Origin: Candidatus Poribacteria bacterium
Lineage (GTDB): Bacteria > Poribacteria > WGA-4E > WGA-3G
Direction: 5' to 3'
Length of the DNA: 64,000 nt
NCBI GenBank assembly: GCA_965197475.1
Contig: CBDANF010000003.1
Location: forward strand, 3,040,001 to 3,104,000
In this document: positions 13,444 to 18,307 of the stretch, in pieces
How the letters are laid out: each line of letters begins with the position of its first letter
Position numbering within the stretch: position 1 is the first letter of the stretch
Made by a program: the position numbers and the translations under genes
Notes under the pieces: generated by a model
Seen by the model: the letters and a program-made list of their open reading frames with translations, nothing else
Databases searched by the model: none
Told to the model about the DNA's origin: nothing

Positions 13444-15951
13444 ATGCAACACAGATACCTATTTCTCACAATTACGTTTCTCATAATCTTTCCACTCATT
13501 ACCACTGCTCAAGACCACACCGCATTAACCCACGGCGGCAGTGTTCAAGCGGTGGCATATTCACCTGTCAATTCTTCACTTATTGCCAGTGCTGGCGGCA
13601 ATCACACGGTTAAATTGTGGGATTTGGCAGAGGGAGTTGTAACAACTTTAGGTAGCCATAGCGAAATTGTCAATTCAATCGCTTTTTCACCGGATGGACA
13701 GCGGCTTGTTAGTGGTAGCGATGATGCCACCCTAAAATTGTGGGATGTGACAGGTAAACGCCACCTTTCGACGCTTTCACATATTACCGACCGTGCCCGA
13801 TCACAAATCAAAGCGGTTTCCTTCTCATCTGATGGGCAAAAAATAGCCACATCTGGAATACACGTAAAGATATGGGATATCCATACGCTCAGAGAAATTA
13901 TGACACTTAGACATAGTGAATGGATTTTTGCTGTAGCGTTCTCTACGGATGGAAAATTCCTCGCCACAGGGGATGCAAGTGGTCAGATAAACGTAAGGAA
14001 TCTCCAAAGCCAACAAGATGTTGTCCAATTCCAAGGTGATCCTGATTTTATAACTACTGTTAAGTTTTCACCTGATGACCAAACACTTGCAAGTGCTGGG
14101 TATAACGGGGGTGTAAAGTTATGGAAACTATCGAATTGGGAACTCATTGGGACGTTACCTACTAAAGGGACAGTTTCTGACCTCACTTTTTCGCCAGATA
14201 GTAGCATATTGGCTGGCACAGATTATGAAGCAGTGAACCTTTGGACAACTCACAACGGCGAAAATATCGCGACACTTCTTGGACACGAAGGGTGGGTGTA
14301 TGCTGCTTCTTTTTCGCCTGATGGGACTTCCCTAACAAGTGGAGGTAGTGATGGAACGTTACGGCTCTGGGATGTAACGCCTTATCAATCTGTTCCGCAT
14401 GATATGGTGAGAATTATCTATTTCATTCCACGTGACCGTGCTGCGCAACTCAATATGTGGACAAAACTAAATCGTCTCATCAGAGATGTACAGGACCTTT
14501 ATGCTGACCAGATGGAAGCGAATGGCTTCGGCAGAAAAACATTTACGTTTGAAACTGATGATAACGAACAAACCGTTGTCTATCGCGTTGATGGAAGGTT
14601 TCATGACCTTTACTATCACACGGATACCACCAATAAGATTCGTGCTGAAGTTGTTTCGCAGTTTGATATGGAAAAACACGTTTATCTGATTGTTGCAGAG
14701 GTCAGCAGCCAAGCCATTGAACAAGAGGATGTGTGTGGAGTCGGTGGCAGTGATTGGCTTGTATTAGATCGTCAGGTAAAATCACGTGGTGGATACGCGG
14801 TTATCCCCGCATCCGGAGACTGTTTTGATGGTGATGCAGGTAAATACGTCACAGCCCATGAACTTGGACATGCTTTCGGATTAGACCACGACTTTCGAGA
14901 CGATAGATACATCATGTCTTACGGTGCGGCTCCGGATCGGTTTGCCGAATGTGCCGCAGAATGGTTGAGTGTTAGTCGGTTTTTTAATACAGACAATATT
15001 GCCTTTAATGATCTGACTATGCTACAGATGCTTACTTCAGAGACTTATCCACCAAATGCCACCAGTTTCCCAATTATATTTCAGATTACTGAACTTGATG
15101 GCATTCATCAAGTTCAGTTGCTTGTTCAAACAACTGAAAATGACCCTGCATCCGGTACCAAGTTACATAGTTGTCAACGAATCGAGGCACAAAGTAGTAC
15201 TGTAAAATTCGATATTTCTTTCTTAACAACACTACCTACAAGCACTATTACGTTAAAAGTAATTGATGTTCTTGGAAATATTACACGTCAAGAATTTGTG
15301 CTAAGGGCAGGGGAATCCCCATCAGTCGAAAACCGAGCTGATATAAACGAAGATGGAACGGTGGATACGACCGATCTTGTACTTGTTGCAGCACATTTTG
15401 GCGAAACAATTATTGGAAGTGTCAACCCGAATCCTGATGTGAATCAGGATGGTATTGTGGATATTCTTGATCTGTTATTGGTGGTAAATGAACTTAATTC
15501 TACTAATGCTGCACCAGCCTACTCTCATCAGATTGCTACACTTGATGTGATAACGTTACAATTATGGATTGAGCAGGCAAAACGACTCCCGAATAGAGAT
15601 GCAACCGTAGAAAAAGGGATTGCAGTTCTTGAACAACTGCTCGCAGCCTTGATGCCAACCGAAACATGCCTCTTGGAAAACTATCCGAATCCGTTCAATC
15701 CAGAGACGTGGATTCCGTATCAGTTAGCAACTGCCTCTGATGTTACGATAACAATATATGATGTGCGTGGAAACCTTATCCGAACGTTAGATTTGGGACA
15801 TCAACCTGCTGGCACATATCAGAATCGCAGTAGCGCAGCCTATTGGAATGGTCGTAATGAAAATAGTGAACTGGTCGCAAGTGGTCTCTATTTTTATACC
15901 TTATCTGCAGGTGATTTCACTGCGACTCGGAAGATGCTGCTGAGGAAGTAA
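13444..15951 (+). CDS. secreted WD40 repeat + zinc metallopeptidase + dockerin-like + C-terminal FlgD/T9SS-like domain protein
   Basis: Signal peptide, WD40 repeats, HELGHAFGLDH with Met-turn (YIMSY), DINEDGTVDTTDL / DVNQDGIVDILDL, and NYPNPFNPETWIPYQL...TRKMLLRK. Confidence 0.88.
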   Translation: MQHRYLFLTITFLIIFPLITTAQDHTALTHGGSVQAVAYSPVNSSLIASAGGNHTVKLWDLAEGVVTTLGSHSEIVNSIAFSPDGQRLVSGSDDATLKLWDVTGKRHLSTLSHITDRARSQIKAVSFSSDGQKIATSGIHVKIWDIHTLREIMTLRHSEWIFAVAFSTDGKFLATGDASGQINVRNLQSQQDVVQFQGDPDFITTVKFSPDDQTLASAGYNGGVKLWKLSNWELIGTLPTKGTVSDLTFSPDSSILAGTDYEAVNLWTTHNGENIATLLGHEGWVYAASFSPDGTSLTSGGSDGTLRLWDVTPYQSVPHDMVRIIYFIPRDRAAQLNMWTKLNRLIRDVQDLYADQMEANGFGRKTFTFETDDNEQTVVYRVDGRFHDLYYHTDTTNKIRAEVVSQFDMEKHVYLIVAEVSSQAIEQEDVCGVGGSDWLVLDRQVKSRGGYAVIPASGDCFDGDAGKYVTAHELGHAFGLDHDFRDDRYIMSYGAAPDRFAECAAEWLSVSRFFNTDNIAFNDLTMLQMLTSETYPPNATSFPIIFQITELDGIHQVQLLVQTTENDPASGTKLHSCQRIEAQSSTVKFDISFLTTLPTSTITLKVIDVLGNITRQEFVLRAGESPSVENRADINEDGTVDTTDLVLVAAHFGETIIGSVNPNPDVNQDGIVDILDLLLVVNELNSTNAAPAYSHQIATLDVITLQLWIEQAKRLPNRDATVEKGIAVLEQLLAALMPTETCLLENYPNPFNPETWIPYQLATASDVTITIYDVRGNLIRTLDLGHQPAGTYQNRSSAAYWNGRNENSELVASGLYFYTLSAGDFTATRKMLLRK

Positions 15952-15958
15952 AACATGA

Positions 15959-16369
15959 CTACTGCCGCAAATCAATTCCCATTATCGTAAAGTGGCGGTC
16001 AAACGCAAAAGCCTCAGAGACGTTATTAAATCGACATATCACAAAACTGGTGCAATCCGTAAAGGATAAACGTGCCGAGTCATACTGGCAAAAAAGAGTT
16101 TTTGCCTTTGTAAACGCCATTTCGTCAATTTCTGCAAGGGTTAATACTCCTGTCTCCACAAGGAGGTCAATACGGTTCAGGAATTGAACTGCAAGGGAAT
16201 GGTTCGTGTCATACCTGAGACGGGTAGCGGTTTCATCAATCACATAATCTGTAGTTAGGAGGCGAATTTGCTGTTGTTGTAAACCTTCAAACACAGCCAC
16301 AGCATCACGATGATGTTGATCCCTTTGATTTAAGAGAGCGAGCCAAGCACCTGTATCAACAAAGATCAT
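15959..16369 (-). CDS. vapC: PIN-domain (VapC-like) ribonuclease toxin
   Basis: MIFVDTGAW, TTDYVIDE, LSFTDCTSF and AFAFDRHF carry the acidic catalytic residues. Confidence 0.9.
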   Translation of the reverse strand: MIFVDTGAWLALLNQRDQHHRDAVAVFEGLQQQQIRLLTTDYVIDETATRLRYDTNHSLAVQFLNRIDLLVETGVLTLAEIDEMAFTKAKTLFCQYDSARLSFTDCTSFVICRFNNVSEAFAFDRHFTIMGIDLRQ

Positions 16370-18177
16370 GTTTTAGACTGTGTTTCATAGATAACGTCAT
16401 CGTGATTGACAGAGCCATCAGTCGGACCAGAGTCGGCGATTCCAATCATCTCACCCATAGTAGCATATCCTGCCGCCATCTGATTCTTTTCAACAAATTC
16501 GCGGATCCGACCATTTTTTATAAGCGTAATAAAGAAATCAAGTACGTTCGTTGCACCGTTGAGAATTTCGATAAACACATCGCGTAGGCTTTGGGTTTCA
16601 ATGTCGAAATGCTTTGCAATTTTCAAATAGTTACGCCCTTTTCGATGTGCACTTCCACTTGAGCGTAGACTTTGGAGTTTTTTCAGAAAAGTAATGTGGA
16701 CATCTGCGCCTTCAATGCCGTTCACATGTAGGGTAGTCTCAAGTAGTCCGATACCTCTTTTACCTTTAAACTCTTTCCGTTTCTCAAAAGGAATTAACTT
16801 TTTCAAATATGCTTCATTCAGGGAATCAATTAGAACCTTTGTCAGACTCAGAACTACTTCATCAAAGTCGCGCTGTTCATCAGTTGCGGGAATTCTCAGG
16901 CATTCAAGATGATATGCATCTGCAGTGCTTAGTGGTAACAACCACTGTTCACCAAGATGATCTTGACTCACCTTTTGTAAATCACGATAACGTTGTTCAA
17001 AAATATGCTCAGGCATATCTGAATTTTTGAATTGGGCACCCAACTGACGGTCAAAAAACGTTTTGCTTATCCCACCTGTTGGTGGAATATTATGTAGTCG
17101 CCAATGTTGCTGTTCGCTATAAGGCAGATCACGTCCAAGATCACCTAACCACATACAAACTTTATCTTTGTGATGGTTATCAATAAAGACACACCACAAA
17201 CTACCGCACGTTAAAATAGAATCCTCAACGCTGTATTTTTCTTCTTGAATGTATTTGCCTAAAACTTTCTTACTGAAATGGACGGGAGTTAGATAACTTG
17301 GGGCATCATTATCCACACCACGAATATTTTCTGGATCGGCAGGCGTTTTTAGTTCATCTGGATTGGAAGTGTAGATAATTTCATCTCCGTTTTCATCAAC
17401 ATCAATAATGAATTCCTCAAATTTCTCTTCTGTTTCCTCCGCGAAGGGCCAGAAACCACTTTTTGCCTTTGGTAACGGTTCAACTAACCTTTTTCCGACC
17501 AAGCGACTGAAAGCATGACAATTATTTATTCCGTGGAGGTCACCATACCGTAGCATCCAACACATCAGTCCATCCTGAAAATTTTCGTCGCCAGCCTGCA
17601 AGTCTAGTTCTTCCAACGAATGTAATGAAGTTTCACTAAAAATGAATTGAATAGCAAGATGCATCTCCTTGACTGCCAAGAATTGACGAATTTCTTTGAG
17701 CCGAATCTGGATGCGGTCTGGTTTGACAATTGCCACGATCTCCTCATTTCCAACGTCATCTATCTTGAGGTATTGATCCGTTTTTCTATCGTGATAGAGC
17801 TCGTGGAACAAGCGAAATTCTTCGGATATTTCCCTATAATCATCCTTTATTTTATGAAAATTTCTATCAATAATCAAAGGTTCAACACCATTATCAACAC
17901 CATAACGTAAATATTCGCGTTGCAATTCACCTTGTTTGTGGTACGTTACACCACTTGGCATGCCATCAGAAAGTTCCAAATTCCAAGTTGAGTCAGCAAG
18001 CGAATCCTGAATTTGAGAAGATGGAATCAGAGCACAAAAGATGTAACGTTTACTATGTTTTTTTGTATCTTTGTCCACTCTATACACAGTGACCATATCA
18101 TTTGACTTTAACTCGCGCTGCATTTCTGCTAATGTATGTGTTTGCGAAAGTCGTTTTTTGTCTGTATTGATACTCAT
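16366..18177 (-). CDS. large conserved hypothetical protein with HEPN-like RxxxxxH motif and antitoxin-like C-terminal tail
   Basis: AAAGGAGG RBS before ATG 18177; LQSLRSSGSAHRKG; tail IGIADSGPTDGSVNHDDVIYE; ATGA overlap with the PIN gene. Confidence 0.7.
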   Translation of the reverse strand: MSINTDKKRLSQTHTLAEMQRELKSNDMVTVYRVDKDTKKHSKRYIFCALIPSSQIQDSLADSTWNLELSDGMPSGVTYHKQGELQREYLRYGVDNGVEPLIIDRNFHKIKDDYREISEEFRLFHELYHDRKTDQYLKIDDVGNEEIVAIVKPDRIQIRLKEIRQFLAVKEMHLAIQFIFSETSLHSLEELDLQAGDENFQDGLMCWMLRYGDLHGINNCHAFSRLVGKRLVEPLPKAKSGFWPFAEETEEKFEEFIIDVDENGDEIIYTSNPDELKTPADPENIRGVDNDAPSYLTPVHFSKKVLGKYIQEEKYSVEDSILTCGSLWCVFIDNHHKDKVCMWLGDLGRDLPYSEQQHWRLHNIPPTGGISKTFFDRQLGAQFKNSDMPEHIFEQRYRDLQKVSQDHLGEQWLLPLSTADAYHLECLRIPATDEQRDFDEVVLSLTKVLIDSLNEAYLKKLIPFEKRKEFKGKRGIGLLETTLHVNGIEGADVHITFLKKLQSLRSSGSAHRKGRNYLKIAKHFDIETQSLRDVFIEILNGATNVLDFFITLIKNGRIREFVEKNQMAAGYATMGEMIGIADSGPTDGSVNHDDVIYETQSKT

Positions 18178-18307
18178 GATGTCCTCCTTTCTGTCATTCG
18201 GATAGAACATACACATTAATTATACCACATTTTTCCTTGCATTCCAAAAGAATATCCACTAAACTAATGCACCGATACAATTGTATTTCTCATAAGGAGA
18301 TAACGAT

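Follow-up and report, generated by a model that had tools for sequence, protein, structure and literature searches.

Described systems closest to the locus

Autoregulation is a usual trait of type II toxin–antitoxin systems, among which VapBC comes closest to the locus described here, found in a window (the whole stretch of DNA that was analysed) of 64,000 nucleotides from a Candidatus Poribacteria bacterium. As in VapBC, the toxin is a PIN protein with four conserved acidic residues, the nearest solved one being VapC20 of Mycobacterium tuberculosis (PDB 5wzf), the upstream partner gene overlaps the toxin start, and the C-terminal peptide of the partner is common to small free-standing antitoxins of related PINs. 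Unlike in VapBC, the partner comprises 603 aa without a recognisable DNA-binding domain, and its putative toxin-binding peptide forms the end of a protein that otherwise comprises 558 aa (hereafter the carrier) and comes from an unrelated and unnamed family.

PanA of Corynebacterium doosanense, an antitoxin extended by Phd-C (Ernits et al. 2023, PMC10440598), resembles our locus, in the part of that report drawn on here, in that a short C-terminal neutralising element follows a globular domain not itself predicted to neutralise. There, however, the small Panacea domain serves as carrier and Doc is the toxin, instead of a 558-aa family and a PIN. HEC-03, as far as the excerpt of its preprint goes, likewise pairs a VapC-like PIN with a large non-VapB partner in a defence context, the partner there being an ABC ATPase unrelated to VapB antitoxins (Payne et al. 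2024, bioRxiv 10.1101/2024.01.29.577857), whereas the partner here bears a VapB-like tail. PrrC and other nucleases are embedded in restriction-modification operons, according to the portion of Anantharaman et al. (2013, PMC3710099) used here; similarly, a tail-less carrier relative with the invariant R-x5-H near its C-terminus lies between hsdS and hsdR, but the carrier family, a candidate RNase, differs from PrrC in having neither an ABC ATPase domain nor a HEPN profile match, and the window's copy is not beside restriction-modification genes. By word search, no VapB-like peptide fused to such a large protein was found in the literature, a kind of search that cannot prove absence.

We propose that the locus is probably a VapBC-type (type II) pair whose antitoxin is a 45-residue tail on the 558-residue carrier, and that this tail peptide most likely restrains the PIN. 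The toxin would be an ordinary PIN/VapC ribonuclease, and the part of the antitoxin would be played by the C-terminal peptide of the carrier, not by a small DNA-binding protein. Translation of the carrier and PIN genes would be coupled, the tail would bind the PIN and keep it inactive, and the PIN may act once the supply of tail stops or the tail is removed.

Gene layout and the PIN toxin

The features of the locus are collected in Table 1. From its first ATG the carrier ORF spans 16366-18216 on the minus strand and encodes 616 aa; the true start is likely the ATG at 18177, since it is this codon, and not that at 18216, which AAAGGAGG precedes, and the equivalent Met is also the start in carrier homologues. 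A promoter-like site is located ∼40 nt upstream of the carrier start codon, sites of this kind showing no excess over shuffles in the whole region. Read from the sequence, the carrier ends with a TGA at 16368-16366 and the PIN gene begins with an ATG at 16369-16367, and through this overlap the locus possesses the upstream coupled partner gene of a VapBC pair. The original prediction, namely that an ORF of ∼600 aa overlaps an intact PIN gene by ATGA with no separate small antitoxin gene present, was thus confirmed by the ORFs and the sequence, and the ORF list holds no separate antitoxin-sized ORF between the two genes. When searched against Pfam and NCBIfam (E up to 1), the 603-aa protein yielded no N-terminal DNA-binding domain of the AbrB, RHH, HTH or Phd type, so autoregulation has no visible basis here. 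No second copy of either gene was found in the same genome. RNA-library contigs identical to the window span the tail-PIN junction, which is weak evidence because libraries of this kind can contain DNA; that they leave most of the carrier gene uncovered speaks neither for nor against the pair.

Table 1. Positions of the genes, protein segments and signals of the locus in the window
Feature	Position	Strand	Basis
Carrier-plus-antitoxin gene, 603 aa	16366..18177	minus	ORF list and homologue starts; family uncharacterised
C-terminal domain of the carrier, about residues 390-558	16504..17010	minus	retained in ∼220-240-aa reduced forms; holds the invariant R-x5-H
R505-x5-H511 (RSSGSAH)	16645..16665	minus	alignment of 72 diverse family members
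C-terminal tail, residues 559-603, proposed PIN-neutralising antitoxin peptide	16369..16503	minus	co-occurrence, homology, deletion series
ATGA overlap of carrier stop codon and PIN start codon (translational coupling)	16366..16369	minus	sequence
PIN-domain (VapC-type) toxin gene, 136 aa	15959..16369	minus	Pfam PF01850 match and conserved acidic residues
Shine-Dalgarno-like AAAGGAGG, 5 nt upstream of the ATG at 18177	18183..18190	minus	sequence read directly
Promoter-like TTGGAA-17-TATAAT, TG before the -10 hexamer	18219..18247	minus	consensus match only, 10/12

The PIN gene matches Pfam PF01850 with an E of 2.2e-9 (38.4 bits against a curated cut-off of 23.6), whereas its score with the NCBIfam VapC equivalog, 16.4 bits, falls well short of the cut-off of 80. 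Its acidic residues D5, E46, D105 and D124 are invariant among 35 aligned sequences. Among proteins of solved structure, VapC20 (5wzf, E 5.6e-15) and AF_1683 come nearest to it, and a sequence similarity to VapC20 of this degree does not fix the target specificity that the PIN may have.

The tail and its partner

Species-representative genomes supplied 80 loci in which to follow the co-occurrence of tail and PIN; 41 of these loci are tail-bearing and 39 tail-less (related loci are designated by L numbers below). A PIN match lay directly downstream in 39 of the 41 tail-bearing loci versus 0 of the 39 tail-less ones, which bears out the expectation that a PIN gene follows the tail-bearing homologues, and the 4-base carrier/PIN overlap was present in 37 of the 39 loci with both tail and PIN. 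Such recurrence argues that the tail-PIN arrangement did not arise by chance. Evolutionarily, the co-occurrence appears to reflect just ∼2–4 independent events: the tree of tail states needs at least four changes, well-supported branches force only two, and a sign test is not significant because only 2–4 independent pairs are available.

The tail is acidic, as had been predicted (8 Asp/Glu versus 3 Lys/Arg), and six of its positions are invariant among 34 aligned sequences. Its relation to antitoxins of the same group, a VapBC feature, is seen at locus L095, where a free-standing 76-aa antitoxin joins this tail (tblastn E 7e-11) to an unrelated N-terminus and is followed by an orthologous PIN that shares 63% identity with the one in the window; for more distant free antitoxins the HMM support is weak, with E values of 0.058–0.076 for the tail HMM, and with the tail ranking 2nd of 100,365 ORFs, at E 0.37, for a reverse HMM of free antitoxin ends. 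Furthermore, within the same phylum, paralogous PINs are preceded by small ORFs that share the terminal pattern G...S.NHD..[LI]Y with the tail, in agreement with the antitoxin C-terminal motif given in the original prediction; one of these ORFs weakly resembles MazE/AbrB and another DUF2281, neither match reaching the cut-off. When short tail-carrying proteins were sought by word matching, a method of low sensitivity, only three matches were returned. The HMM of free antitoxin ends also picked out an orphan antitoxin-like ORF without a downstream PIN on another contig of the same genome.

The codon of Met567 lies at 16479, just where an ATG had been placed from which a free 37-aa antitoxin might arise. 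This internal start was rejected, Met being present in only 7 of the 34 aligned tails and the mini-antitoxins keeping the original start of the gene.

A natural deletion series was found among the relatives. With the tail profile, 64 matched among 176 genomes across the phylum, and the 61 strong matches fell into frames of at least 480 aa (34), 385 aa (1), 217–316 aa (13) and at most 106 aa (13). Loci L087, L090, L098 and L108 encode forms of ∼220–240 aa consisting of the C-terminal domain and the tail only, and L106 encodes a ∼66-aa form made of the first 10–17 residues plus the tail; each is accompanied by a full-length PIN without stops. By synteny these deletion derivatives occupy the same chromosomal site, and up to ∼540 aa of the carrier has been lost. 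On the PIN side, L002 and L009 have lost the gene, L016 has a frameshift in it, L017 a stop, and L064 a shortened copy, with the tail kept in all five, while no intact orthologous PIN without a tail was seen, the best 30 PIN loci all having the tail directly upstream. L173, which is tail-less, also lacks PIN residues 1–25. An opposite assignment of roles, with the PIN as the antitoxin of a toxic large protein, was rejected, given that the large gene stays open in L002, L009, L016 and L017 where the PIN is lost or broken. As the locus is decaying in many relatives, selection may not maintain the module in all genomes.

Taken together, the co-occurrence with the PIN, the homology to the C-termini of free antitoxins and the constant retention of the tail with an intact PIN point to the tail as the antitoxin. 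That tail and PIN are always found together would equally suit a docking peptide which, instead of inhibiting the PIN, recruits the active enzyme into a two-nuclease complex, and PIN and HEPN domains are indeed fused in eukaryotic Swt1 according to the part of PMC3710099 used here. Docking alone, however, does not predict that decay is one-sided, with the PIN lost while the tail is kept and never the reverse, it leaves the 66-aa tail-only partners of intact PINs unexplained, and the tail shares homology with the C-termini of ordinary small antitoxins, so we consider this reading very unlikely.

The repeated internal deletion of the carrier with persistence of tail and PIN, the many decay states of the locus, the occurrence of the tail on a small unrelated N-terminal part in L095, and the replacement of R or H of the R-x5-H motif in the shorter subfamily L111, L112 and L115, where a PIN still follows, would all fit a selfish addiction cassette fused by accident: a VapBC would have been joined by recombination to an unrelated gene at its 3′ end and the pair would persist as an addiction module, the function of the carrier being unconnected with the PIN. 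This is a real possibility, yet one we hold to be somewhat doubtful, since the full-length fusion with its 4-base overlap is kept across four phyla, down to 47% identity, more than half of the strong tail matches still lie in the longest class of frames, and a link to Type ISP genes (see below) suggests more than chance placement.

The carrier family and its neighbourhoods

The carrier belongs to a family of 1827 representatives at 50% identity that has no name or domain assignment, and most members are ∼550 aa long and without a tail. No domain was found in the carrier with Pfam and NCBIfam (E up to 1), neither carrier nor PIN matched PADLOC-DB 2.0.0 (E up to 1), the PDB sequences gave no match to the carrier protein or the family profile, PHROGs gave no real match to the large protein (E 0.1), and the phage collection searched gave none. 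The family is thus unnamed in Pfam, NCBIfam, PADLOC and PDB sequences; it may or may not be the same as GAPS2, presented in the part of its preprint used here as a domain-less single-protein system of GMT islands (bioRxiv 10.1101/2023.03.28.534373).

Across 72 diverse family members only nine columns are invariant, and R505 and H511 are two of them. Rx4-6H is the signature of HEPN RNases, whose fold is a four-helix up-down bundle with the motif at the usual HEPN position. Several reduced forms (L108, L174 and L113) have a degenerate version of the motif, and its decay after loss of the N-terminal 390 residues suggests that it works together with the N-terminal part. Neither ten isolated C-terminal domains (E up to 10) nor the 72 whole members matched a HEPN family of Pfam. 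By hhalign, in which DUF4145 and DUF4209 were the HEPN families compared, the C-terminal domain and the full family alignment gave probabilities of 0.45% and 0.16% with DUF4145 (an alignment of 24 of its 31 matches, 30 as loci, with internal-stop and weakest matches left out), and of 0.15% and 0.08% with DUF4209 (all 11 matches). The original prediction of a HEPN-like large protein therefore stands as to the invariant R-x5-H and falls short as to any profile match; this motif is the one feature from which a HEPN reading of the carrier would follow, and the carrier may be an RNase.

As for the neighbourhoods, the window's module and most Poribacteria copies are flanked by housekeeping genes, so that the suggested location in a defence island does not hold for the window's copy, whereas some relatives do adjoin restriction-modification genes. 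A tail-less carrier relative (X) at L054 is part of the type I operon hsdM-hsdS-X-hsdR. By phmmer, type I restriction-modification genes were detected in 9 of the 39 tail-less loci, and a Type ISP enzyme gene in the vicinity of 12 of the 41 tail-bearing loci, with the carrier directly downstream of it where gene maps were inspected. Restriction-modification families were also the commonest Pfam matches among 131 flanking proteins, and on a Pseudomonas syringae plasmid one carrier homologue occupies the first cargo position of a GMT island, such islands being rich in defence genes as far as the portion of bioRxiv 10.1101/2023.03.28.534373 used here tells. Hence, in other bacteria, a minority of the carrier-family loci examined adjoin restriction-modification genes or a mobile island.

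These neighbourhoods, together with the invariance of R505 and H511, the decay of the motif after the N-terminal deletion, and the linkage of at least 16 HEPN clades to restriction-modification systems with PrrC as the model (PMC3710099, in the part used here), argue for a guard-type defence with two RNases, in which the carrier would be a HEPN RNase and sensor whose phage-triggered change or loss frees the PIN as a second effector and leads to abortive infection. Against this stand the negative Pfam, hhalign (below 1%) and PADLOC results, the housekeeping surroundings of the window's and most Poribacteria modules, and the fact that an intact PIN can be retained where the carrier is lost, and we regard this explanation as unlikely. 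A wider version, to which we give slightly less credence still, would make the ∼550-aa family an undescribed defence sensor or nuclease, often placed in restriction-modification operons, of which the sponge-symbiont copies captured a VapC by way of a grafted VapB peptide; the PIN would then be kept on a leash until infection altered or destroyed that large protein, the whole acting as a guard-type two-effector abortive-infection module.

If the tail is the antitoxin, as we propose, a VapB-type toxin-binding peptide can be transferred to a large protein of another family and yet stay associated with the toxin, and the natural deletion series would map the needed part to ∼45 residues without experiment. 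The restriction-modification and GMT-island neighbourhoods make the carrier family a candidate defence gene. Should the carrier sense infection, the locus would provide a simple natural example of toxin–antitoxin pairs wired into immune sensors.

Organization of the carrier and PIN genes

As the original prediction had it, a ~600-aa ORF overlaps a PIN gene: a 603-aa protein (hereafter the carrier) is followed directly by a 136-aa VapC-type toxin candidate, and the carrier TGA stop and the PIN ATG share four bases (ATGA). Its details on the RSSGSAH motif, the acidic tail and Met567 were also correct, and no small antitoxin ORF stands between the two genes among the window ORFs, the separate antitoxin gene being indeed missing. 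ATG 18177 is the likely carrier start, because AAAGGAGG and a promoter-like site lie ahead of it and the carrier homologues share the equivalent Met as first residue.

Features of the carrier–PIN gene pair in the window
Feature	Position	Strand	Remark
Carrier ORF, full open frame	18216 to 16366	minus	ORF read from sequence
Carrier start codon, ATG	18177	minus	likely start, giving 603 aa
AAAGGAGG	18190-18183	minus	precedes ATG 18177
Promoter-like TTGGAA-17-TATAAT	18247-18219	minus	upstream of ATG 18177
RSSGSAH, R505-H511	16665-16645	minus	carrier motif
Acidic tail	carrier residues 559-603	minus	C-terminal end of carrier
Met567	16479	minus	inside tail
PIN ORF, 136 aa	15959-16369	minus	PF01850, E 2.2e-9, above cut-off

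Residues D5, E46, D105 and D124 were invariant across 35 PIN sequences, and the nearest solved relatives were Archaeoglobus AF_1683 and Mycobacterium tuberculosis VapC20 (5wzf, E 5.6e-15), whose PDB name, 23S rRNA-specific endonuclease, does not fix the target of the window's PIN. One study of sponges contributed four metatranscriptome runs with contigs identical to parts of the window, and two of them bridge the tail–PIN junction (16205-16410 and 16288-16457), a weak hint of co-transcription, weak because DNA can occur in RNA libraries.

The genes around the module encode an Ldh_2 dehydrogenase, a WD40 protein, a GFO/IDH/MocA oxidoreductase, a methyltransferase and an esterase-like protein; these look housekeeping or non-defence, and so the window's copy lies outside any defence island. 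The WD40 protein (835 aa, 13444-15951, plus strand) has its propeller at the N-terminus (residues ~20-315) and a long C-terminal part without cover in the listed Pfam matches, and its gene converges on the PIN gene with the stop codons 7 bases apart.

Association of the tail with intact PIN genes

A one-genome-per-species scan yielded 206 carrier relatives, the best 80 of the 206 loci being kept. The tail was present in 41 of the 80, from Poribacteria, Latescibacterota, Caldilineaceae and Nitrospinota MAGs, and a PIN match began at the stop or no more than a few bases from it in 39 of these 41 (37 with the 4-base overlap) versus none in the flanks of the 39 tail-less loci, in agreement with the expectation that tail-bearing homologues precede a PIN gene. 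Both exceptions are deletions, keeping the first 11 PIN residues (L002) or “MI” (L009); elsewhere the PIN is frameshifted at its start (L016, possibly an assembly error), interrupted by an in-frame stop (L017) or cut to 118 aa (L064). A carrier tree computed with the tail removed requires at least four changes of tail state, only two of them forced by well-supported branches, giving 2–4 phylogenetically independent contrasts, so that a sign test cannot reach significance and the raw 39/41 versus 0/39 overstates the independent evidence. The weight of the tail–PIN evidence lies in the persistence of the arrangement down to 47% identity.

Of the 176 genomes in the phylum of the window, 98 gave matches to a PIN profile. 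Among the 30 best PIN loci there, window included, the tail stood directly upstream of the PIN in all 30: the carrier extended back as far as the fetched flank permits in 23, had an internal deletion of ~100 residues in one (L109), was left as residues ~381/393-602 in four (L087, L090, L098, L108), and was represented by the tail alone in two (L095, L106), the PIN being full-length and without stops in all six of the latter reduced forms. The ~66-aa product of L106 fuses the carrier's first 10-17 residues (MSINADKKRL...) to the tail. Further reduced forms occurred among weaker PIN matches (L172, L174, L177-L182, L186), with the PIN decayed in several. Except for L095, L108 and L179, the reduced forms adjoin the same oxidoreductase gene as the window's module, and L106 the WD40 gene as well; they are therefore in-place deletion derivatives, not different genes. 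The tail profile matched in 64 of the 176 genomes, and the stop-to-stop tail frames of the 61 strong matches measured 480 aa or more in 34, 385 aa in one, 217-316 aa in 13 and 106 aa or fewer in 13. Thus, of the upstream protein, only the tail is retained wherever the PIN is live. No intact orthologous PIN without the tail was found among the PIN loci of the phylum; L173 lacks the tail and PIN residues 1-25 too, and L185, with the first half of the tail in its upstream ORF, is a PIN paralogue. Such one-sided loss, the PIN being lost while the tail stays, is what a toxin–antitoxin relation predicts.

At the Poribacteria site syntenic with window 15959-18177 (L081-L110, L172-L186), with oxidoreductase and WD40 genes on either side, related genomes display full modules, internal deletions, PIN stubs and near-total loss, L183 retaining PIN residues 108-134 only.

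Upstream of weaker, paralogous PIN matches, for which 20 loci were fetched, stand small separate ORFs. Most of 17 aligned free C-termini have a G, ~10 residues, S-x-N/E/Q-H-D, two residues, L/I, and a Y near the stop, the antitoxin ending that the original prediction had described, and the window's tail has the same pattern. Profile matches were weak in both directions: E 0.058-0.076 for the tail profile against the paralogue-upstream ORFs among 101,919 ORFs, and E 0.37 for the profile of the 17 free C-termini, by which the window's tail ranked second of 100,365 own-genome ORFs, at the exact C-terminus. Two free antitoxins had weak, below-cut-off matches to MazE/AbrB and DUF2281. The orthologous-PIN locus L095 gave a stronger tail–antitoxin link than these paralogue matches: its 76-aa protein shares the tail (tblastn E 7e-11) but not the N-terminus, which is unrelated, and the PIN downstream is 63% identical to that of the window.

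Two further features belong to the window's genome but not to the window itself. An orphan 99-aa ORF (contig C2, 1258596-1258892), with two DPLLAL.GTL copies and an ERHDDYI ending, resembles the antitoxins that precede one group of PIN paralogues and has no PIN downstream. At least six near-identical short hydrophobic N-terminal peptides (KIRRILMKK...), 1.5-3 kb apart on contig C3 (~1755600-1768200), turned up as noise matches to the tail, which points to a tandem gene family.

The carrier family and its HEPN and defence readings

The carrier had no match in Pfam, NCBIfam or PADLOC at E up to 1, in PDB sequences by single-sequence and family-profile searches, or in the phage collection, and a single weak one in PHROGs (E 0.1). 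At E up to 0.001 a word-indexed search matched 1754 proteins, all named just “hypothetical protein”, and an exhaustive search matched 1827 of the 50%-identity representatives (1205 at 1e-10, 666 at 1e-30). Members are mostly ~540-565 aa, their matches stop near carrier residue 558, and few among the best 150 reach residue 602. A shorter subfamily of ~370 aa (L111, L112, L114, L115; genomes G065-G068) is related to carrier residues 257-602 only (34-37% identity), with a downstream PIN ~50% identical to the window's; the motif R or H is replaced in all three members read, and L112 has a degenerate tail.

When 72 diverse members sharing 31-85% identity with the window's carrier were aligned, nine columns proved invariant, R505 and H511 among them. 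This R-x5-H, which the original prediction took as the HEPN RNase signature (Rx4-6H), is what stands of that claim: Pfam assigned no HEPN family to the carrier, the 72 members or isolated C-terminal domains, and against alignments of DUF4145 and DUF4209 made for this comparison, hhalign gave probabilities <1%. The motif has decayed in some forms without the N-terminal part (L108, L174, L113) and in the shorter subfamily (L111, L112, L115), a point in favour of a HEPN RNase or defence protein. Gene orders of relatives favour the same reading, with the family member (X) in hsdM-hsdS-X-hsdR (L054) or hsdM-Bro-hsdS-X (L067), or just downstream of genes for a Type ISP enzyme and Uma2 (L020). By a conservative phmmer screen, type I genes occurred in 9/39 tail-less and a Type ISP gene in 12/41 tail-bearing loci, and the commonest Pfam families among 131 proteins flanking tail-less loci were Methylase_S (7), N6_Mtase (5) and HsdM_N (4), with MmeI_Mtase, HsdR and recombinase families next; the restriction-modification link is, however, limited to a minority of loci. 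Genes embedded in R-M operons are reported to be often defence genes (bioRxiv 10.1101/2024.01.29.577857), and at least 16 HEPN clades have been linked to R-M (PMC3710099). The Pseudomonas syringae pv. maculicola plasmid pPma4326F has a tail-less homologue (L190, 137914-139494) with 41% identity to the copy from Shewanella. It comes directly after the GmtY, VPA1269-family and GmtX genes and ahead of a run of hypothetical proteins; this position makes it the first cargo gene in a GMT island, and such elements are reported as rich in defence systems (bioRxiv 10.1101/2023.03.28.534373). Some relatives sit beside R-M genes or in a GMT island, and the window's copy does not. Taken together, a HEPN RNase identity of the carrier is possible but less likely than not.

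L067 and L068 hold an identical family member in MAGs labelled Clostridiaceae and Lentisphaeria, with hsdM and hsdS flanks arranged alike, which points to transfer in the very recent past or to misbinning.

Proposed mode of action

The best-supported reading is a pair of VapBC type in which a large protein bears the neutralising peptide. Comparison shows that the carrier and PIN are coupled as a gene pair, that the tail is homologous to antitoxin ends, and that the tail region suffices for coexistence with an intact PIN. The tail would bind and inhibit the PIN, and a release step would free it. As rival readings, the carrier may sense infection, as in a guard model, the pair may be only an addiction cassette attached to a neighbour gene, or the tail may merely dock the PIN. 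The components are already known: PIN toxins, antitoxins of modular build, and neutralising extensions at the C-terminus, of which Phd-C on PanA is a reported example (PMC10440598). Grafting of a neutralising peptide onto such a carrier had no description in the literature covered, supplementary tables, which possibly name the family, excepted. What is new is such a peptide grafted onto a 558-aa unnamed protein family, together with a deletion series that maps that peptide.
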